From Candidatus Aenigmatarchaeota archaeon (lineage in GTDB: Archaea > Aenigmatarchaeota > Aenigmatarchaeia > Aenigmatarchaeales > JACQIB01), in assembly GCA_043799675.1 (NCBI GenBank), contig JAZDNN010000028.1, positions 1 through 38,284 on the forward strand: a DNA stretch of 38,284 nt, given 5' to 3'. The stretch's first letter is position 1. The number at the start of each line of letters is the position of its first letter. A program made the translations under genes and the position numbers. Below are positions 238 through 22,894 of this stretch, piece after piece. The notes under the pieces are model-generated. The model was not told the DNA's origin. It worked only from the letters and a program-made list of their open reading frames with translations, and did no database searches.

Positions 238-273
238 GCACAGTGCTGACTGAAAAAGGTTAAATACGGCGAT

Positions 274-1467
274 TCATTTCACCGCGCTGACAATCTCGAT
301 GATGTCCCTGTGCTTGAGCTTGTGGTCCTTGCCGAGCCGCATCTTGGTCCTGGCATCGATGGCGAACAGGAAGTTCTTGGCGAAGTCCTGGTGTATCTTT
401 CCCGCGAAGTCGACGGCGGTGGAGCCCGGGGGGAGCAGGAAGCAATCAGGAAGGATGTTCCCGTCCTTGTCCGCGAGCTTGGTGACCCCGCCCGGGAAGA
501 CGGCGATGTATTTCAGGAATTTGAACACGGCCGTTTCAAGAGTTTCCTGGATGCCCGTGCCGCCAATCTTCTTCATCATGTTCCGTATATACTCAAGGGC
601 GGATTTCTGCTTTTCACTGAGTGCTTCGGGCTTCAGAACCTTGAAATCCGCCGAGCCGGGAAGATAATCTATCAGGCCCTTTTTTGCGGCCTCCTTCAGG
701 GCAATCTCGGAATCGCCCGAGCAGGGGATGAACGTGTAATGGGGGAATTCCTTCTTCAGGCGTTCGTAATTCTCAAAGGAGCACGGCATGTCCATCTTGT
801 TGCAGGCGATGATTATCGGTTTGGTACCCCTGCGCAGCTCGACGGCCAGGCCTTTCAACTGTTCTTTTGGCCAGTCGGCGGGTTTTTCCCTGTCAAGACG
901 GAACTTTGTGATGGAATTCGCCACAAGCTCTTCGGTGACCCTGAAGGCGGAGAGCTGCTTCGCCAACGCCTCTTCTATTCCCAAGCGGTTCGACTGTATC
1001 TGGCGCGCGAACTTTTCCCAGCCCTTTTTCAGTATGCCGAGATACCACATGTCCAGTTCCTCCTCCAGGAAGCGGACATCGTTCGCGGGATCGTAACCGG
1101 TAGTTGCCTCGCCTTTCTCGTTGATGGTCCCCGAAGCGTCGACGATGTGAATCAGGACATCGGCACGGTTCAGGTCGTTCAGGAACTGGTTGCCCAGGCC
1201 CTTCCCTTCATGCGCCCCCGGCACCAGCCCGGCCACGTCCATGAGCTCGACGGGGACAAATCGCGTGCCTTCTTTGCAGAACCCGTAACGCGGGTTGCAC
1301 TGGACGCCGCGCTCGCGGTCAACACATTCCACCCGGACGAAGCCTATCCCGCGGTTGGGCTTGATGGTGGTGAACGGATAGGACGCTATCGCGACATCGA
1401 TGGAAGTGGCAGCCTTGAAGAAAGTGGACTTGCCGCAGGAGGGCTTCCCAACTATTCCTATGAGCAT
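274..1467 (-). CDS. ychF: YchF/Obg-family translation-associated NTPase with C-terminal TGS domain
   Basis: GKPSCGKST P-loop, YPFTTIKPN switch I, DVAGLVPGAHEGKGLGNQFL, NKMD, TGS-like C-terminus. Confidence 0.95.
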   Translation of the reverse strand: MLIGIVGKPSCGKSTFFKAATSIDVAIASYPFTTIKPNRGIGFVRVECVDRERGVQCNPRYGFCKEGTRFVPVELMDVAGLVPGAHEGKGLGNQFLNDLNRADVLIHIVDASGTINEKGEATTGYDPANDVRFLEEELDMWYLGILKKGWEKFARQIQSNRLGIEEALAKQLSAFRVTEELVANSITKFRLDREKPADWPKEQLKGLAVELRRGTKPIIIACNKMDMPCSFENYERLKKEFPHYTFIPCSGDSEIALKEAAKKGLIDYLPGSADFKVLKPEALSEKQKSALEYIRNMMKKIGGTGIQETLETAVFKFLKYIAVFPGGVTKLADKDGNILPDCFLLPPGSTAVDFAGKIHQDFAKNFLFAIDARTKMRLGKDHKLKHRDIIEIVSAVK

Positions 1468-1734
1468 TCACTTCACCCGTTTCTTCAGTTTCGTCAGCGT
1501 ATAGGCAATCTCGAACGCGACCACGGCGAGTATGGAGGCGTTTATGACCAAAAACACCGGGTCATGCACGAACCATGAGTAAAGGATGAGGGAACCGTTG
1601 CCCAACGCATAAACGGCGGCGAAACGCAGGTCGATGAGTGCCTTGTGCTTCTTGACCCCCTCGTAGGTCTCGAATACCCATGCGCCCAATATGAATATCG
1701 CACCGAGCACGCCTACTATTATTTCAGGTCCCAT
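1468..1734 (-). CDS. Small 3-TM membrane protein (PQ-loop/SemiSWEET-like size and topology)
   Basis: 88 aa, three hydrophobic segments, DPVFLVIN motif; abuts the ychF start. Confidence 0.7.
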   Translation of the reverse strand: MGPEIIVGVLGAIFILGAWVFETYEGVKKHKALIDLRFAAVYALGNGSLILYSWFVHDPVFLVINASILAVVAFEIAYTLTKLKKRVK

Positions 1735-2884: not shown

Positions 2885-3469
2885 ATGCCGCACCACTATT
2901 ACAAGGAAATCGTGCTGGAGCTCAGGCAGGATGTTTACGAGCCCCGCGAGGACTCGGAACTGCTGGCAGAGGCGGTCGAGCAGGAAGTCGGAAAAAGGAA
3001 AAACACGTCCTTTCTTGACATGGGATGCGGGACAGGCATAATTGCGATAACGGCTGCAAAGACGGGTGCAAAAGTGACTGCGGTCGATATCAACCAGAAT
3101 GCCGTTGAGCTGACCAGGCAGAACGCGAAAAACAACAAAGCGCATGTCGAATGCCTGAGGTCCGATCTGCTTGAAAGCGTCAGGGGAAAGTTCGAAATAA
3201 TCGCGTTCAATGCGCCCTATTTGCCTGAAGCAGTTGCGAAAGGAAATGAAGCATGGGCCGGAGGACAGGAGCTTGAAGTCATACGGAAGGCGGTTGAACA
3301 GGTCAAAACAAGGCTCATGCCTGAAGGGGTCTTCCTGATTGCGATAAGCAGCCTGACCGGCATGGGCAAGATTGGAAAACTCCTGGAATCGAACGGGTTC
3401 AACTGGCAGATAATCGCAGAACGGAAGGTGCCCTGGGAAACGTTGTTCGTCCTGAGGGCTGTTTTATAA
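2885..3469 (+). CDS. HemK2/MTQ2-like SAM-dependent protein methyltransferase
   Basis: VYEPREDSELL, LDMGCGTG, FNAPY (NPPY-like). Confidence 0.92.
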   Translation: MPHHYYKEIVLELRQDVYEPREDSELLAEAVEQEVGKRKNTSFLDMGCGTGIIAITAAKTGAKVTAVDINQNAVELTRQNAKNNKAHVECLRSDLLESVRGKFEIIAFNAPYLPEAVAKGNEAWAGGQELEVIRKAVEQVKTRLMPEGVFLIAISSLTGMGKIGKLLESNGFNWQIIAERKVPWETLFVLRAVL

Positions 3470-3491
3470 GCCAGCTCCAGAAAAATAGGTC

Positions 3492-5819
3492 ATGCGAGCG
3501 GTGCTGGTTGCGGTCCTTATAGTCCTTATTGCATTGCCGACGCTGGCGGCCGCAAAGGATATCCTGTATGTCACGAAGCAGAGTGCCGCCGGGCTCACGT
3601 GCGCGAGCCTGACAGGGGACGACAAGCTGTTCTGCAACCGGCTCGTGAAACTGAACTATGTCGTGAGCATAGCGACCGACTCGGACGTGCGGGACGACAG
3701 CCAGCTTTGGAAGATAATGCTGGAACGGTCCGACATGATATTCCTCGGGGACGTCAGCGCCAGGATGGTCAACACGAGCCTGGGCGACCGTGATGCGTTC
3801 TGCGGCAGTCTGGCCGGCAGCGGCAAGAAAGTATTCGCCACGTTCCTCAACTCAAAGAAGAAAGGGGACATAGAGGGCTGCGCGTTCAGCCCGCTGAACA
3901 TCGCAATTTTCACAGGCAGCAGCAACAACTGCACCGACAATAAGCTGTTCGTGCTTGAAAGCAACTACATAACCAAGGGTCTGGCCGTGGCGTCACCGGT
4001 CGTGGTCTACACCAAGAACAACGAGCTGAAGGTGTCCGGCGGGACGGGCAATGCCGCCGTCAACTGCAACCCGTCAGGTTTGGGGACGGACTTCTATTCC
4101 GCGATAGAGGTCAACGGCAAGGGCGTGTTCTGGGGACTGGACAGCCCCGGCAACTTCACGGATGCGGCATGGAGGCTGTTTGACCGGACAGTGCTTTTCG
4201 CCAACGGGGACAACGGTTGGAACGTGACCGCTTTTTTCATACCGCAGAAGGCGACGGTAAACGGGTCGGTGATGGTGTTTGCACGGGTAAGCAACGTCAG
4301 CGGTCCGGTGACGACCGGGACCGTCAAGGCGTTCATCGGGGAGACCGAGCTCGGCAACCTTTCATACAGCAACGGCACGGGATGGTGGGAGAACCGACGG
4401 CTCATCCTTCCCAATGGCGGGGACCTGCAGGTCCGGGCCGAGGACGGGGATGCGACATCGGGCATAGAGGCGGGATCGATGGAGATAAGCATAATTTCCG
4501 GAAATTATCAGCCGCCCAATTACACCGTCTCTGCACGGCCCCTGCTGAACGGGCAGGTCATAGCCGCCAACCTGAATTACCGCATATGGAATACGAACCT
4601 CACTGTCCTGAAAGAAGGCAGTCTTGAGTGCGGGGCGGATTTCTGCACCGCCACCACCGAACTGCAGGCTTCCGGCCAGTTGATTCTGGAAGTGTACGGG
4701 GCATCCGATACTCACACGGGCGGCTCGTTCAAACTGATTAACAAACAAGGGACCGCGGCCGGCGCAAGGGCCGAGCCTTCCCAATGGATAGTCACCGCGA
4801 CCTCGCCCGGAAGCGAGAGACGGACGTTCAACATCGTGGCCGATTCCAACCTGACCGGCATGGCGCTGCTTCCCGGAGGAGGACTGGCGGCAAGCATTGT
4901 GAATTTCTCCTCGATACCGGCGACCCTGACCGTCGGTTCCAGTACGAGCTTCAGTGCGATGCTGGACTGGAATGCGCTCGTGGAGGGGGAATATTCGGGC
5001 AGCATAATACTTGTCAACGACCAGAAGGTCCTGACCATACCGGTGACGCTCTACAGGTACAACATAATCGGCGATTACCTGGGCTCGAAACAGAAGTCGC
5101 TCAGCCTGAACGTGCCGGCGGGTGGAAAAGGGACGACCGTGCTAACCCTTACGGATTCCGCCGGGGTGCCGGCTACAAGTTTCTTCATCAGTGCGGATAC
5201 GCCCGAGCTGGCGCGTGCGGTCAGCATTTCAAACGACCTGATGGCGGTCCCGGCCGGGGGCCAGGCGGACCTGACCATAAAGGTGGATGCCGGCAGCCTG
5301 GGCGAGGGCAGCTTCAGCGGAAATCTGATAGTCTGGAGCAGCCTGGGCAACGAGACGGTCCCGATATCGGTGCGCGTCGGGCAGGACATAAGCGCGTTGC
5401 TGCGTTCCCTGAACAGCGATTACACGGAACTCATTGAGGGAAGAAAGCTGTCTTCCGACCAGCAGAGCCTTTCCAATAGCGTGAACAGCAGCCTTTCTGC
5501 GGCAAACACGGCAATCGCAGGAGGCGACTATTCCGCGGCAATGTCCGCATACAGGAGCGCAAATTCGACCTACTTCAGCCTCAAAGACAACATTGCCGCC
5601 CAGTCCGCTGGCGGCGATTATACAGTGATAATAATCGCGGTCTTAATCCTGGTGCTAATCGGCGGCGGCATCGCCTATCTTTACCTGACCGGCAAGCTCC
5701 CCTTCCTGAAGAAAAAGAAGACCGAGGCGGAAGAAGAGCAGCAGAAGGAAGAGGAGCAGGCGGAAATGCCCGGTGAGGAGAACGAGACCGACGAGAAGTA
5801 CCGGTTCGAATATTACTGA
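3492..5819 (+). CDS. Large secreted, C-terminally membrane-anchored surface glycoprotein
   Basis: Signal peptide, beta-rich Ig-like segments, many N-x-S/T sequons, helical stalk, TM helix, KKKK and acidic tail. Confidence 0.85.
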   Translation: MRAVLVAVLIVLIALPTLAAAKDILYVTKQSAAGLTCASLTGDDKLFCNRLVKLNYVVSIATDSDVRDDSQLWKIMLERSDMIFLGDVSARMVNTSLGDRDAFCGSLAGSGKKVFATFLNSKKKGDIEGCAFSPLNIAIFTGSSNNCTDNKLFVLESNYITKGLAVASPVVVYTKNNELKVSGGTGNAAVNCNPSGLGTDFYSAIEVNGKGVFWGLDSPGNFTDAAWRLFDRTVLFANGDNGWNVTAFFIPQKATVNGSVMVFARVSNVSGPVTTGTVKAFIGETELGNLSYSNGTGWWENRRLILPNGGDLQVRAEDGDATSGIEAGSMEISIISGNYQPPNYTVSARPLLNGQVIAANLNYRIWNTNLTVLKEGSLECGADFCTATTELQASGQLILEVYGASDTHTGGSFKLINKQGTAAGARAEPSQWIVTATSPGSERRTFNIVADSNLTGMALLPGGGLAASIVNFSSIPATLTVGSSTSFSAMLDWNALVEGEYSGSIILVNDQKVLTIPVTLYRYNIIGDYLGSKQKSLSLNVPAGGKGTTVLTLTDSAGVPATSFFISADTPELARAVSISNDLMAVPAGGQADLTIKVDAGSLGEGSFSGNLIVWSSLGNETVPISVRVGQDISALLRSLNSDYTELIEGRKLSSDQQSLSNSVNSSLSAANTAIAGGDYSAAMSAYRSANSTYFSLKDNIAAQSAGGDYTVIIIAVLILVLIGGGIAYLYLTGKLPFLKKKKTEAEEEQQKEEEQAEMPGEENETDEKYRFEYY

Positions 5820-18958: not shown

Positions 18959-19909
18959 TCATTCCAGCACATCGACGCTGTCCAGTATGCCGTCCGAGTC
19001 CGCATCGATGCCTTCGACCACCTTTGCCAGAATTTTCGGGTCCTTCCTGTTGCCTGCGCATAAATCATCAAACTTTGTGAGCAAGGCGAGGACGGCGGCC
19101 TTGGTGCCTGCGCTCCTCCTGCCTGCAAGAACGAGCACCTCTTTGGTCCTGTCGAACGGATTGCGGGTCTTGACGACAATCCCGTGATTTTCCTCGCTGT
19201 AGCTCCTGTGCGAAACATCCGAGTAAATGCTGGAGAACTTGAACGCGCCGTGCTCGACCTGCTTCATGCGGATGGGCAGCTTCTCGTTCAGGCGGGCCAT
19301 TATCATGTTCACGGCCGGTCCTCCAACGACTATCAGGTTACGTTTGAGGTCGCTTTCCCTGATTTCGGTGTCCAGTCGAACGCACTGCTCGGGAATGTAA
19401 TTGAGGAAGCTTCCGAGGAAAAGACCAAGCTCCGCCGCCTCGGTGCCGTCCTTGGCCCGCACCTTGGTGGGGCCGTGCGGCTCGGGGCTTCCCATGATTA
19501 TCAGGGCGTTCAGCTTCCCGTCAATCACGAACGGCTCAAGGAAGCGTTTGTGCTCGCTTTTCAGGGACTGCAGTTTTGCCGATGGTTGGAGGGGTTTGAG
19601 TAGGACGGCAAGGGCGGAGGCGTCGGCAGAGTAGATTTTGGCCATTGCACCCTGCCGGCCTTCGTTGCGGAGCACCCTGATCAGGCCAGCTTTTTCGAGG
19701 TTGCGGATGTGGTAATAGACCTTCTGTTCATGCACCTTCAGCTGCCGGGCCAGGTTCTTGGGATAGTCCGGCTTTTCTGTCAATGCTTGGAGTATTTTCC
19801 AAGCTAGTGGGCTGAGTGCGGTCGCCATTTGTCGGGGTTGCACGAGCTTCGCTGGTGCACTGACAGTCTTGCCGTTTTTCTGTTCAAATATATAGACCAT
19901 GTATACCAT
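18959..19909 (-). CDS. ArsR-like HTH regulator fused to a C-terminal alpha/beta domain
   Basis: PKNLARQLKVHEQKVYYHIRNLEKAGLI HTH; NLIVVGGPAVN and LVLAG...GTKAA motifs as in S-layer-like C-terminal domains; divergent from the glm operon; start 19900-19915 uncertain. Confidence 0.85.
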   Translation of the reverse strand: MVYMVYIFEQKNGKTVSAPAKLVQPRQMATALSPLAWKILQALTEKPDYPKNLARQLKVHEQKVYYHIRNLEKAGLIRVLRNEGRQGAMAKIYSADASALAVLLKPLQPSAKLQSLKSEHKRFLEPFVIDGKLNALIIMGSPEPHGPTKVRAKDGTEAAELGLFLGSFLNYIPEQCVRLDTEIRESDLKRNLIVVGGPAVNMIMARLNEKLPIRMKQVEHGAFKFSSIYSDVSHRSYSEENHGIVVKTRNPFDRTKEVLVLAGRRSAGTKAAVLALLTKFDDLCAGNRKDPKILAKVVEGIDADSDGILDSVDVLE

Positions 19910-19927
19910 TAACAACTAAATTTTACT

Positions 19928-19961
19928 ACTATTACAATAGTTTTAGTGGTATTTAAATACC
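19928..19961. promoter_or_regulatory. Divergent promoter region with two palindromes (candidate operator and TATA box)
   Basis: ACTATT-AC-AATAGT (19928-19941) and perfect GGTATTTAAATACC (19948-19961) containing TTTAAATA on both strands. Confidence 0.6.
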
Positions 19962-19997
19962 TATTCTCACCATTATTCGGATTAGCGGACTGATAAA

Positions 19998-21089
19998 ATG
20001 GAACTGGATTTAACAAAACTGTTGGATGGGCTTGAGATCAGGACGCCAGCCGGTAAAGGGCGGCTGACTGTCATAAATAAAGGCGGGAGATTTATCGGTG
20101 TTTCCTATGTTTATAGAAGAAATATGGATAGGGTGAACAGAACCAGCAGTTTGGTGCTTCGAAAAAACATTGTCCTTAACACACAGAACGTTTACAGGGT
20201 CGCCCTGCTCGTTTCCGAGGGAAGTCATTTACGACCTAACAAAGTTGCGAAAAACAGTTACTTCAAATTCACAAATACGGATAAAGCGATGATGCATGAA
20301 GCTTTACGATTTTTTGAATATCTAATCAAGGATGGAAATATAAAGTTTGAGCTGAAGTGCCCACCGAAAATGTCCAAACAGCAAGCAGTATGCGCGTGGG
20401 CAAGCTGCCTGAGCGGGAGCGCTTACACAATCAGTCGCAGCAGCAGAACGGGCACTGCTTCTTGCGGTGCCTATGTCAATAAAGTCTTCTTGACGCATAT
20501 AATAGATAGGATTGCAGAAGCCACCATTATGCACATCAAAAATGATAAAAAATTGTTAAGGTCTTGGTTCGCGGGCCGGATAGACGGGGACGGATCGATA
20601 CATCCTACCTATCATAGAATAGATATCGCTTATCATAAAGTCGATGAAGCAGTATTAATGAGGACAGAAAAGACACTTCTTCGCAGTATGGGAGTGAAGT
20701 TTGTCAAAGACAGGTTGTTAAACGGCAAAAACATTGTCGTCCTGCAGATATGCGGTTTAGATAACATGATAAAGCTGCTTGACCCAAGAACGGGCTTGAA
20801 AAACAAGGTAAGAATCTTTTGTCTTATAAAACGGACCAAGTTTTATATCGATTTAAATCAACGTTTCAGAGAATCTTTACCCGTTCGGTGTTCAAATATA
20901 ACGCAACAGAAGAATTGGACCAGATATCTGAACGGAAGCAGGAGAATGCCGCTTTCTGTTTACGAGGGTACGTTCGGAACGGCATGCGTACACAGCATAA
21001 AAGACATGAGATGCGGTAATAAAATCATTGCAGACAAAGACGTTATACGAGGCATTTTGGACGTGAAACGTCTCACGGGAGGTGAATGA
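19998..21089 (+). CDS. Free-standing double-motif LAGLIDADG homing-endonuclease-like protein
   Basis: Motif 1 VALLVSEGS followed by FKFTNTD; motif 2 WFAGRIDGDGSI; visibly AT-richer than neighbours; no intein splice motifs. Confidence 0.8.
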   Translation: MELDLTKLLDGLEIRTPAGKGRLTVINKGGRFIGVSYVYRRNMDRVNRTSSLVLRKNIVLNTQNVYRVALLVSEGSHLRPNKVAKNSYFKFTNTDKAMMHEALRFFEYLIKDGNIKFELKCPPKMSKQQAVCAWASCLSGSAYTISRSSRTGTASCGAYVNKVFLTHIIDRIAEATIMHIKNDKKLLRSWFAGRIDGDGSIHPTYHRIDIAYHKVDEAVLMRTEKTLLRSMGVKFVKDRLLNGKNIVVLQICGLDNMIKLLDPRTGLKNKVRIFCLIKRTKFYIDLNQRFRESLPVRCSNITQQKNWTRYLNGSRRMPLSVYEGTFGTACVHSIKDMRCGNKIIADKDVIRGILDVKRLTGGE

Positions 21090-21090
21090 G

Positions 21091-22894
21091 TTGTGCGGAA
21101 TAATCGGCTATGTCGGTAGCAATTGTAATGTGGGCGAACTGCTGTTGAATGGCCTTAGGAACTTGGAGTATCGTGGATAGCGGCCAACGGTTACGTTGGC
21201 GGCCCACATACGACTCCGTGGGGATAGCCGTTCTGGATAATCAGGGAAACATAGTCGTCAGAAAGGACGTCGGAAAGATAAGTGACGTTGATCAGAAGCT
21301 GAATTTTTCTGAGTTCCCAGGAAAGGCAGGCATGGGTCATACGCGTTGGAGTACACATGGTGCGGTCACCCAGGCTAACGCTCATCCGCACCTCAGCAAC
21401 GATAAGAGCATAGTTGTGGTCCACAACGGGATAATCGAGAACTACCAGGAACTGAGAAAGGAATTGCAGGGGAAGGGATTCGTCTTTTTGAGCCAGACGG
21501 ATACCGAGGTGATACCGAACCTGATTCAACTGGAAATGCGTGACAAGCCGTACGTTGAGGCGGTCAGAGTCGCACTGAACCGGCTGGACGGGAGCTTTGC
21601 AGTGGTCATAGCAAGAAAGGGGGAGAAGCGGCTGATAGCTGCCAGGAAAGAAAGCCCACTGGTCTTGGGGGTGGCAATCCACGGACTGTTCGTTGCATCC
21701 GACATACCCGCTTTTCTGGATCAGACCAAGAACGTGATTTATCTCCACGATAAGGACATGGTGTTGCTTGAACAGAAGCCGCAGGTGTTCAGCCTTGTTA
21801 CCGGCCTGCCCGTGGAAAGGAACATGGACAGCATAGCATGGGACATCGAGTCCGCCAAGAAGGGCTCTTTCGAGCATTTCATGCTGAAGGAGATAAGCGA
21901 ACAGGCCGAGACGGTATCAAAGGCAATAGAACAGAATAGAGAAAGCATAGAGGAAATCGCGGAGGCCATACGGAACGCGAAGGGCGTATACTTCGTGGCA
22001 TGCGGCTCCAGTTACAACGCATGCAAGGCGGCCGAGTACAAGTTCTCATGGCTCGCGAAAAAGCACATCAACGTGGCCTTGGCTTCGGAGTTCCCGAACT
22101 ACAAGGACTTCCTGCTTCCTGAAAGTCTTGTCATAGCAATCTCGCAGTCCGGTGAGACTGCGGACGTATTGTCCGCCGTCAGGGCGGCCAAGGAAAAGGG
22201 AGCGAAGGTCATCAGCATAGTCAACGTGATGGGGAGCAGCTTGGCAAGGGAGAGCGACAAGTCCGTGATGATGAATGCCGGGCCGGAGATTTGCGTGCTT
22301 GCGACCAAAAGCTATACCAGCCAGCTTGCAATTCTGACCCTCATTGCTTACGCGCTTGCAGGCAGGTATGATGAGGGAAAGGGAAAATTGAAGGAACTGA
22401 TAAGGCATATTTATTATCAGACCTCGGCCAACATGCGTGCATACGTCAAGCAGCTGGCGAACCAGCTCAGGTATACGCATCATATCTATGTCATCGGCAG
22501 GGGGATGCAATATCCCACCGCGCTTGAAGCGGCACTCAAGATCAAGGAAGTCAGCTACATCCATGCGGAAGGTTTCGCCGGCGGTGAACTCAAGCACGGG
22601 AACATAGCGCTCATCGAGCACGGGACTCCCTGCATAATTTTCATGAGCAAGGACAACGAGAAGGAAATGATGGGGAACGCGATGGAGCTGAAAGCCAGGG
22701 GAGCATACATAATCGGAATCGGTCCGAACCCGAACGAGGCGTTCGATTTCTTCATCAAGGTCAGGGAATCCGAAGAGGCTAACAGCATCTGCCAGATAAT
22801 CCCGGTGCAGCTCCTGGCCTACCAGCTTGCGGTCTTAAGAGGCTGCGACCCCGATAAACCGAGGAATCTTGCGAAGTCCGTCACGGTGAAATGA
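21091..22894 (+). CDS. glmS: Glutamine-fructose-6-phosphate transaminase, join(21091..21178,21210..22894), 590 aa
   Basis: TTG start after GGAGGTGA gives MCGIIG...LEYRG; resumes YDSVGIA, GHTRWSTHG, HNGIIEN, SQSGET, KPRNLAKSVTV after a 31-nt insertion. Confidence 0.93.
21179..21209 (+). other. Putative 31-nt BHB-type mRNA intron in glmS
   Basis: GTGG-ATA-GC-G-GCCAACG-GTTA-CGTTGGC-G-GC-CCAC-ATA; cutting after base 2 of each ATA bulge joins CGT GGA T^AC GAC TCC (RGYDS). Confidence 0.85.

Follow-up and report, generated by a model that had tools for sequence, protein, structure and literature searches.

Can a free-standing endonuclease gene and a very small intron in the gene next to it form a single mobile unit? 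This question is raised by the glmS locus of a Candidatus Aenigmatarchaeota archaeon (GenBank assembly GCA_043799675.1; 0.75 Mb in 45 contigs, 83% complete). The stretch of DNA analyzed here (contig JAZDNN010000028.1, 38,284 nucleotides; hereafter, the window) carries, directly upstream of the single-copy glmS gene, an open reading frame (ORF) of 363 codons plus TGA (19998..21089, + strand, as are all window features given coordinates below) with the predicted features of a double-LAGLIDADG homing endonuclease. The glmS coding sequence is itself split by a 31-nt insert located ~88 nt from its start. A preliminary description of this DNA had proposed that the enzyme targets the conserved EYRGYDS codons of glmS, that the insert is an intron that immunizes the host allele, and that both move by co-conversion. 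Our analyses bear out the free-standing endonuclease gene, its insertion, the reading of the insert as a bulge-helix-bulge (BHB) intron, the apparent joint acquisition of these elements and an association between endonuclease genes and introns, but not a strict pairing of endonuclease and intron. We give about an even chance to the reading in which the intron splits the enzyme's target within conserved 5' codons of glmS, in which case the two would make up a LAGLIDADG gene-drive cassette.

The ORF is a separate frame with its own start and stop upstream of glmS, outside any intein or known intron, as the preliminary description had stated. No Hint splicing domain could be shown in its protein, an Rfam scan of positions 19300-22000 returned zero matches at E≤1, and a check for terminal or flanking repeats around the ORF found none. 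Its reported AT-richness was also confirmed (GC content 0.426 and GC content at third codon positions, GC3, 0.471, versus 0.531 for the window; the neighboring helix-turn-helix (HTH) gene and glmM have GC contents of 0.557 and 0.543, respectively). The TGA stop occupies positions 21087-21089 and glmS starts at 21091 with TTG, the codon directly 5' of the catalytic Cys codon, which leaves a gap of 1 nt instead of the 2 nt originally reported. As predicted, the Shine-Dalgarno sequence of glmS, GGAGGTGA (21078-21085), lies inside the final ORF codons, and it is the sole plausible ribosome-binding site for the gene. The C-terminal GGE of the ORF, which falls within this segment, is conserved in two of its homologs (P0002 and P0003). 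Neither ORF junction is an assembly artifact, because independent contigs from other studies span both of them. One (X2 record 11) covers 20859-21329 with 15 mismatches and 0 gaps and belongs to a strain ~97% identical in which the end of the ORF, the start of glmS and the intron are all present; the other (X4 record 26) covers the upstream junction (19918-20306). None of the contigs from other studies skips the ORF or the intron, although their coverage is thin and an empty-site allele may exist.

The assignment of the ORF product to the LAGLIDADG family, also made in the preliminary description, draws on alignment with distant relatives, a structural model and a fold search, and is missed by the curated sequence libraries. 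A search of Pfam and NCBIfam with the ORF protein matched 0 families (Pfam E≤1), and searches of the PDB sequences with the protein and with a 5-row profile gave chance matches only (E≥0.2). The close family is small, with four relatives among 1.84 billion representatives (P0002, 70% identity; P0003, 65%; P0004, 40%; P0005, 37%). Neither 60 relatives' genomes nor 371 class genomes yielded a close relative (best E in the class 5e-10), two scans of metagenome contigs confirmed none, and a scan of genome contigs returned one weak match, of 57 residues, in a WOR-3 bacterium. The weak matches within the class are free-standing ORFs of 180-530 aa. Pfam LAGLIDADG_3 scores below its cut-off of 22.5 bits in P0002 (E 0.0033, 18.1 bits) and P0004 (E 0.011, 16.4 bits), and weakly related ORFs in relatives' genomes exceed the cut-off (L004, 53.2 bits; L006, 76.3 bits).

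An 11-row alignment of the ORF family with distant ORFs of the class (A2) placed two candidate motifs. Motif 1, YRVALLVSEGSH (20193..20228), carries the candidate catalytic residue E74, and its RVALLVSEG segment aligns with GLYLGDG, GLIQAES, GYYRAEG, ALYFGEG and GILIGEG of the distant relatives. Motif 2, FAGRIDGDGS (20568..20597), carries the candidate catalytic D198; it is the same in 3/3 close relatives that cover it, except for S or T at the final position, and FAGRIDGDG aligns with LRGYFAAEG, FRGLLSGDG, LRGVIEGDG and LKGLIAGEG. Close relatives whose sequences extend over these positions have both acids conserved, and six distant relatives have D or E at both positions. AlphaFold modeled the core poorly from the 5-row alignment (predicted local distance difference test, pLDDT, 56.5), and we used the A2 alignment instead, which gave an AF2 model with a pLDDT of 85.5 and a predicted TM-score (pTM) of 0.79. 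The leading Foldseek matches to this model are all LAGLIDADG proteins (E 1e-6 to 1e-3), with structural Z scores (VIA) of 13.8 for TliVMA, 13.1 for PI-PfuI, 12.9-13.0 for I-DmoI, 12.4 for I-Tsp061I and 11.4-12.2 for WhiA. Residues 58-275 align to 173/191 residues of I-DmoI with a root-mean-square deviation of 3.4-3.6. In the model, E74 sits at the C-terminal end of helix 62-72 and D198 at the end of helix 184-198, which are the positions of the catalytic acids in the LAGLIDADG family. The predicted product thus has the fold of the monomeric, double-motif members of the family and one acid per motif, and the model describes an active-looking, free-standing double-LAGLIDADG homing endonuclease whose nuclease activity is predicted from fold and acids. 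Because both E74 and D198 are present, the product does not resemble the nuclease-dead WhiA, a check that the preliminary description had called for.

Two additional domains flank the predicted double-LAGLIDADG core (aa 58-280; 20169..20837), which is delimited by the alignment to I-DmoI. The N-terminal domain (aa 1-57; 19998..20168) is beta-rich, confidently modeled (pLDDT 83-95), outside the I-DmoI-aligned range and kept in the distant relatives; it is presumably an additional DNA-binding module. The C-terminal domain (aa 281-363; 20838..21086; pLDDT 73-89) is helical, concentrates the invariant columns of the alignment and, with the motif NWxRYLNGxR, is the best-conserved part of the close family. 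This domain probably serves as a further DNA-binding domain. The N-terminal LLDGLEIR of the ORF was also considered as a relic of a duplicated glmS exon 1 (LLLNGLRNLEYR). We rejected this idea because distant relatives located away from glmS share the N-terminal pattern and because the segment is part of a confidently folded domain.

The insert in glmS splits EYRG from YDS: it starts with an in-frame TAG, and downstream of it YDSVGIAV is read in another frame. The ends of the insert are ambiguous over an ATA repeat, and the BHB cleavage rule sets them at 21179-21209. Exon 1 (21091..21178; GC3 0.57) consists of TTG and MCGIIGYVGSNCNVGELLLNGLRNLEYRG to the first two bases of the Tyr codon; exon 2 (21210..22894) runs from the last Tyr base of YDS to the stop codon and encodes the Pfam GATase_6/7 and two SIS domains. 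The centroid fold of the intron region has a z of -3.87, and 0/200 shuffles were as stable. It comprises an outer helix (UGGAGU/ACUCCG), a 4-bp helix H (GUGG/CCAC), a 5' bulge of 3 nt (AUA) and an inner stem of 10 positions (9 bp and one G.G) closed by a GUUA loop. On the 3' side, AUA is part of a 3x5 internal loop that precedes the outer helix (GGAGU/ACUCC); the motif is therefore a relaxed BHB, with helix H, the 5' bulge and the inner stem canonical. Canonical BHB cleavage, as in tRNA introns, takes place after the second bulge base on each side. Cleavage by this rule removes 31 nt and restores LEYRG-YDS as CGT GGA TAC GAC, with the predicted exon junction CGTGGAT|ACGACTCC. By fold and frame restoration, the 31-nt insert is thus best read as a BHB intron (21179..21209), as the preliminary description had claimed. 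Programmed bypassing of the T4 gene-60 type, or a +1 frameshift at GGA-TAG, was rejected as an alternative, with ACA and not Gly as the codon before resumption and, for the frameshift, with 10 residues added into EYRG-YDS.

The genome also encodes the predicted splicing machinery. Two tandem endA genes with overlapping frames (191 and 226 aa stop-to-stop) lie at C10:51446-52584 (-) (L123:2446-3584), both encoding an N-terminal plus a catalytic domain, and the genome has rtcB too. Heterotetrameric splicing endonucleases accept relaxed motifs, according to one report (PMC5829648). The gene pair suggests that the tandem EndA proteins may form a two-subunit enzyme of this relaxed-motif kind.

Comparison with relatives indicated where the ORF entered the locus. 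The HTH gene is the divergent neighbor of glmS in 16/29 relatives' loci. The HTH/glmS spacer is 1175 nt long in the window versus ~65-90 nt at L011 and L012, the two closest loci for which spacer lengths were worked out. In G003, the closest relative with glmS (73% identity), a TATA box and a GGACTGA(A/T)A leader shared with the window stand directly 5' of the glmS ATG; here they stand 5' of the ORF ATG, as a TATA-like TTTAAATA (19952-19959) and the leader GGACTGATAAA (19987-19997). The segment 19916..19997 would then be the ancestral divergent HTH/glmS spacer, now serving as promoter and leader of the ORF. Because the TATA box and leader that serve glmS in G003 precede the ORF ATG here, the comparison places the ORF as an insertion between the glmS leader and start codon and, by prediction, as the first gene of the operon. 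Downstream of glmS come glmM and then a nucleotidyl-transferase gene. A DNA search of 20 relatives with the junction sequence gave no match. At the protein level, the C-terminus of P0003, ...GGEDVVRNNRICR (tail DVVRNNRICR), spells out what a glmS start encodes when read out of frame (GGE*VVRNNRLCR in the window), and P0003 therefore adjoins a glmS start as well. Sporadic presence, insertion into a syntenic position and deviant composition, the hallmarks of free-standing mobile genes, are all found in this ORF.

Exon sequences suggest that the ORF did not arrive alone. Among the closest GlmS proteins, P0006 and P0007 (73% and 70% identity, respectively, over the first 200 residues) are uninterrupted. 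A third protein, P0010 (71%), has the predicted start MPTYDSIGIAV, in which PT is the translation of ...CCCACA, the sequence that closes the same intron on its 3' side. Two more (P0015 and P0030) have N-terminal truncations in this region, and a search for short glmS fragments starting in the intron frame returned nothing close. In the first three windows of exon 2, the protein matches P0010 at 27, 24 and 23 of 30 positions and P0006 at 16/27, 11/27 and 17/29. From residue ~46 onward, P0006 matches 20-30 of 30 positions (at least 24 in 32/36 windows) and P0010 fewer. Among 131 informative sites, 15/17 in residues 1-52 of exon 2 are P0010-like and 101/114 beyond them are P0006-like (Fisher 2e-10, for a breakpoint picked post hoc among ~290 positions). 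The breakpoint (~21332-21365) coincides with the conserved GHTRWSTHG codons, ~135-155 nt 3' of the intron. Base composition changes in the same region, as the preliminary description had noted by eye: GC3 is 0.47 in the ORF, 0.57 in exon 1 and 0.52 at the start of exon 2 (its first 150 nt, which score lowest among 11 windows) versus 0.71 in the remainder.

The probable co-conversion tract thus comprises exon 1, the intron and exon 2 up to about codon 41-52 (21091..21365) and, together with the ORF, forms a cassette of ~1.35 kb (19998 to ~21365). Because the mosaic, the drop in GC3 and the synteny coincide, the ORF, the intron and the 5' exon look co-acquired as one foreign block, with the P0010 allele, whose genome is not one of the 371 of the class, represented by its GlmS protein. 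The pattern of the block therefore fits double-strand-break repair with co-conversion, which is what the preliminary description had led us to expect, and the mosaic and GC3 shift correspond to the co-inheritance expected of collaborative homing.

Micro-introns of similar design interrupt other protein-coding genes. In this genome, a 31-nt BHB micro-intron lies in rtcB between MPDGHWG and YGFPIGG (C16:57868-57898; L059:2369-2399), and another of 31 nt splits the P-loop codons of the aEF-2 gene (NIGIVSH|IHHGKT; C2 minus ~5630-5660; L058) 87 nt into the gene. The glmS, rtcB and aEF-2 introns share one plan, with a 4-bp helix H, a 3-nt bulge, a 10-position stem, a 4-nt loop and 31 nt in total. 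Frames are likewise restored when this cleavage rule is applied to rtcB and aEF-2 here and to the aEF-2 introns of two relatives (G038 and G027). Among relatives, the aEF-2 introns measure 32 nt in G021, 33 nt in G038 (9 nt further on) and 31 and 30 nt in G027 (15 nt apart), and the rtcB genes of G006, G016 and G053 are interrupted at or beside the rtcB intron site of this genome. A genome scan for introns by structure only gave 262 matches versus 236 in a shuffle, with no enrichment, and scans with loose coding filters gave 4385 and 2998 candidates, mostly noise. Only the three candidates in glmS, rtcB and aEF-2 restored conserved motifs, a number of intron-bearing protein genes that is a lower bound for this genome.

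Probable inteins were observed in some of the same genes. The glmS gene of G004 (L026, G004:C3:109246-113805, minus) encodes an intein of ~430 aa with LAGLIDADG motifs at GH|C...HN|SRWATHG, a site ~150 nt 3' of the micro-intron site and near the breakpoint described above. Long open frames at the rtcB intron site of G003 and G004 (977 and 1018 aa) suggest inteins, and frames of ~1230-1270 aa at the aEF-2 intron region of G005, G008 and G053 are probable inteins as well. In this genome, three long ORFs (a ribonucleotide reductase, RNR, of 1581 aa, and two of 908 aa and 1384 aa) contain internal LAGLIDADG motif pairs and are also probable inteins.

Across the loci compared, free-standing LAGLIDADG genes adjoin intron-bearing genes more often than intron-less ones. 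Over 101 loci of glmS, EF-2 and rtcB, examined in flanks of ≤1.5 kb with a LAGLIDADG hidden Markov model (HMM) built in this analysis, an adjacent free-standing LAGLIDADG ORF was detected at 4/9 intron-bearing versus 2/92 intron-less loci (Fisher 4e-4). The p value was 0.003 without the glmS locus of this genome (G000 in the locus comparisons) and 0.018 without all G000 loci (2/6 vs 2/92). Twelve loci were set aside as unclear (3 glmS, 3 aEF-2 and 6 rtcB, by an automatic call); two of the three aEF-2 loci were assigned by visual inspection. This genome has an adjacent LAGLIDADG gene at 2 of its 3 intron-bearing protein genes, glmS and rtcB. The ORF beside rtcB (C16:59044-60282 (-); L127:245-1483) is a LAGLIDADG_3 ORF of 413 aa with an N-terminal HTH-like region; it is convergent and 3' of rtcB, and its stop-to-stop frame overlaps the rtcB 3' end by ~170 nt. 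Beside this 413-aa ORF we also observed a 361-aa reverse-transcriptase gene (RVT_1; C16:60335-61417 (-); L127:1536-2618). In G027, which has two aEF-2 introns, a 407-aa LAGLIDADG_3 ORF adjoins the aEF-2 start, and in G016, whose rtcB is interrupted, a 211-aa LAGLIDADG ORF lies upstream in divergent orientation. At 25 uninterrupted aEF-2 loci, the LAGLIDADG HMM matched 0/25, and Pfam on the larger upstream ORFs (27 ORFs at 24 loci; the 25th had 418 nt upstream and no long ORF) found none either.

The glmS genes of relatives are nearly all continuous. Among 50 relatives' loci, 46 have an uninterrupted LEYRGYDS, one has a 1-nt frameshift and three are unclear (one with an intein and two divergent), and 0/50 carry this ORF family upstream. 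The frameshifted gene (G131; L140, G131:C24, ~nt 1490-1500) was considered as a further intron and rejected, as it has one extra G in a six-G run at the EYRG/YDS codons; it is either an assembly error or a pseudogene. We also observed, in G005, a distant homolog of the ORF away from glmS (G005:C2, L002/L042; 349 aa, L002:1408-2454), ~230 nt after the gene for topoisomerase VI subunit A (Top6A). The C-terminus of Top6A (…FISDVYLPEKIKKRDFLD) is mimicked by the tail of this homolog (…FVSDKYLPEKNKEEGLD), which could mean that the ORF came in with a copy of the top6A 3' end or supplanted one.

The scheme that we infer from these findings, and that covers nuclease activity, cut site, the role of the intron in immunity and the direction and mechanism of transfer, would operate as follows. 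A ~1.35-kb cassette, made up of the endonuclease gene and a replacement glmS 5' end (exon 1, the 31-nt BHB intron and some 45 codons from the start of exon 2), would have entered the lineage by homologous recombination. The old glmS promoter would drive transcription of the endonuclease gene, now at the head of the glmS-glmM operon, and translation of glmS would depend on the ribosome-binding site contained in the final ORF codons. Removal of the intron from the mRNA would fall to the host's splicing endonuclease and RtcB ligase. The enzyme, in turn, would cut glmS alleles that lack both endonuclease gene and intron in the conserved 5' part of the coding sequence, with EYRG|YDS or its vicinity as the most likely site, and repair from the cassette-bearing copy would transfer the endonuclease gene, the intron and the flanking exon together. 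The intron would keep the carrier's own allele uncuttable, in an archaeal form of collaborative homing.

Several observations weigh against this scheme. The mosaic rests on two comparison alleles and on a breakpoint chosen post hoc, and the genomes compared are related, so that the Fisher tests overstate significance. Five of the nine intron-bearing loci have no adjacent LAGLIDADG gene in the examined flank (aEF-2 here, with 217 nt upstream to the contig end; aEF-2 of G021 and G038; rtcB of G006 and G053). Conversely, a LAGLIDADG ORF of a different subfamily (356 aa; L033 (G059:C7) 3269-4336 (-)) occupies the same junction in G059 beside an uninterrupted glmS that starts with TTG; Shine-Dalgarno sequence, ORF stop and TTG are arranged as in the window, and the junction is almost identical (GGTGATTGATTTGTGCGGAATAAT there and GGTGAATGAGTTGTGCGGAATAAT here). 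In G003, a weak LAGLIDADG ORF (412 aa; L011 (G003:C20) 243-1478 (-); A2 HMM E 1.2e-8, Pfam 19.9 bits and below cut-off) lies between glmS and glmM, where glmS and also the first 81 glmM codons are uninterrupted. The co-occurrence of ORF and intron proposed in the preliminary description thus holds for this genome, for its ~97% identical strain and for the 4/9 versus 2/92 comparison, but not for G059. Finally, free-standing LAGLIDADG ORFs are numerous in this genome, at least 10 in all, and mostly lie next to intron-less genes. Nine of these exceed the Pfam thresholds and the glmS-adjacent ORF is an additional one; their neighbors (on C6, C10, C12, C16 and C31; L120-L126) include the genes for form III RuBisCO, pdaD, purE, endA/top6A, tyw1, RNA polymerase subunit N and an ABC ATPase. 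Of these LAGLIDADG ORFs, three adjoin the 5' end of the next same-strand gene, and pdaD and the ABC ATPase gene, both intron-less, have such an ORF at their 5' ends. An impression from Pfam that the pdaD gene beside the ORF is truncated was rejected, as the gene is one open frame.

The case of G059 implies that an endonuclease gene at this position needs no intron and that the start-codon site may itself be a homing site. The glmS start-codon boundary looks like a recurrent docking site for endonuclease genes. G059 also lends the best support to the main rival explanation, namely, that the enzyme's target is the insertion junction (glmS leader, start codon and MCGIIGY codons) and the intron is a mere passenger with no role in immunity, which we consider rather unlikely though ahead of the other alternatives. 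Dissimilar ORFs occupy this position here and in G059, the junctions are nearly identical, glmS starts with TTG in both genomes, and glmS of G059 has no intron; in classical homing the insertion itself breaks the target, the MCGIIGY codons are as conserved as EYRGYDS, and the placement of free-standing ORFs at the 5' ends of the intron-less pdaD and ABC ATPase genes follows the same pattern. Yet a target at the junction leaves unexplained both the co-occurrence of introns and LAGLIDADG genes and the presence of the intron in a second, equally conserved stretch ~88 nt away, and it would have non-conserved leader DNA as its upstream half. That co-occurrence (association p 4e-4) also speaks against the absence of any functional link, in which endonuclease gene and intron would have arrived independently, the intron by a general proliferation of BHB introns through reverse splicing or transposition, and the mosaic would reflect ordinary recombination. 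Introns built on the same plan also occur in rtcB and aEF-2 here and in 6 relatives' genes, several of them with no endonuclease gene in the examined flank, which is compatible with such independence, and with so many LAGLIDADG genes in the genome some adjacency is expected by chance. However, we estimate that chance adjacency would amount to only a few percent per gene (~10 ORFs in 0.75 Mb), yet two of the three intron-bearing genes are adjoined, and a contiguous foreign block runs from the endonuclease gene to ~135-155 nt past the intron. Independent arrival is, on balance, distinctly improbable.

Least credible, and in our view very improbable, is that the ORF encodes a domesticated, nuclease-dead DNA-binding protein, such as a WhiA-like regulator, or an RNA maturase for the glmS operon. 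WhiA structures do match the model (Z 11.4-12.2), additional domains are present at the N- and C-termini of the protein, the C-terminal one being its most conserved part, and the gene would be co-transcribed with glmS. Against domestication stand the retention of both catalytic acids, the extreme sporadicity of the family (the 4 relatives in 1.84 billion and no close one in the 371 class genomes) and a gene that is AT-rich and inserted. Furthermore, BHB splicing is catalyzed by proteins (EndA and RtcB), and we know of no need for a maturase.

The preferred reading, a cassette whose intron splits the enzyme's target, has its nearest parallel in phages. The F-CphI gene lies beside the ORF-less group I intron of psbA in cyanophage S-PM2, and T4 mobE is paired with the defunct I-TevIII intron of nrdB. 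Such pairs (F-CphI with psbA, mobE with I-TevIII) are treated as collaborative or trans homing in three reports (PMC6083498, PMC2790892, PMC2988022). The glmS locus has the same layout, with a free-standing endonuclease gene that adjoins a conserved gene whose ORF-less intron splits a conserved site. In both cases the endonuclease gene, intron and exon markers are expected to move jointly, and the mosaic found here is consistent with that expectation. The differences are that the locus described here is on a cellular archaeal chromosome, that the enzyme is predicted to be of the LAGLIDADG and not the HNH or EndoVII-like type, that the intron is a 31-nt BHB element spliced by proteins and not a self-splicing group I intron, and that the endonuclease gene takes the host gene's promoter.

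Among archaeal enzymes, those of rRNA BHB introns (I-DmoI, I-Tsp061I and I-PorI) share the core fold with the ORF model (Z ~12-13, 160-176 residues aligned), one acidic residue at the end of each motif and an archaeal host with BHB introns. In contrast to the I-DmoI type, the gene described here lies outside the intron, the host gene is protein-coding, extra domains of 57 aa (N-terminal) and 83 aa (C-terminal) are present, and sequence similarity is below library thresholds. The LAGLIDADG enzymes of inteins (the G004 glmS intein at GH|TRW, PI-SceI, PI-PfuI) give the best structural matches (Z 11-13.8) and are likewise directed at the most conserved codons of essential genes, glmS itself being parasitized in G004, a genome of the same family; here, however, the enzyme has a separate gene upstream and is not in frame inside glmS. 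In fungal mitochondria, free-standing endonuclease genes replace gene ends and leave 3'-terminal duplications. There, too, an endonuclease gene sits at a gene boundary with a replacement copy of the neighboring gene end (compare top6A of G005), whereas in glmS it is the 5' end that appears to be replaced and the replacement carries an intron.

For the intron, the precedent is the BHB intron in the cbf5 pre-mRNA of Crenarchaeota, an intron in an archaeal protein gene described in one report (PMC2738675). Both are of the BHB type, show sporadic gain and loss, and presumably depend on the tRNA-splicing enzymes. The introns described here differ in that they occupy other genes in a DPANN lineage, follow a fixed 31-nt plan (10-position stem and 4-nt loop) common to rtcB and aEF-2 and, in glmS, come with a neighboring endonuclease gene and a co-conversion signature; we know of no endonuclease association for the cbf5 intron. 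In the open-access literature searched, cbf5 was the only protein-gene BHB intron described in archaea, and our search of open-access papers and preprints turned up no BHB intron of a protein gene described as paired with a free-standing LAGLIDADG gene.

This locus offers a concrete route, with a measurable recombination scar, by which BHB introns could pass from gene to gene and from genome to genome. In the cassette reading, an endonuclease gene docks at the 5' boundary of a gene and brings with it a replacement exon whose intron splits the target. If the enzyme cuts intron-less glmS at the intron site, collaborative homing would extend to cellular archaea and to introns spliced by enzymes. 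The enzyme would then recognize a highly conserved glmS sequence and could be a possible meganuclease scaffold with extra DNA-binding domains. Beyond glmS, BHB micro-introns in archaeal protein genes may have spread, and been kept, as the immunity half of LAGLIDADG gene-drive cassettes that home between species, a generalization that we offer tentatively and consider somewhat less probable than the reading of the glmS locus itself. If true, it would provide a DNA-level mobility mechanism for the protein-spliced introns of archaea, explain why micro-introns are placed in the most conserved codons of their host genes, including P-loops and active sites, and may extend to tRNA introns at odd positions.

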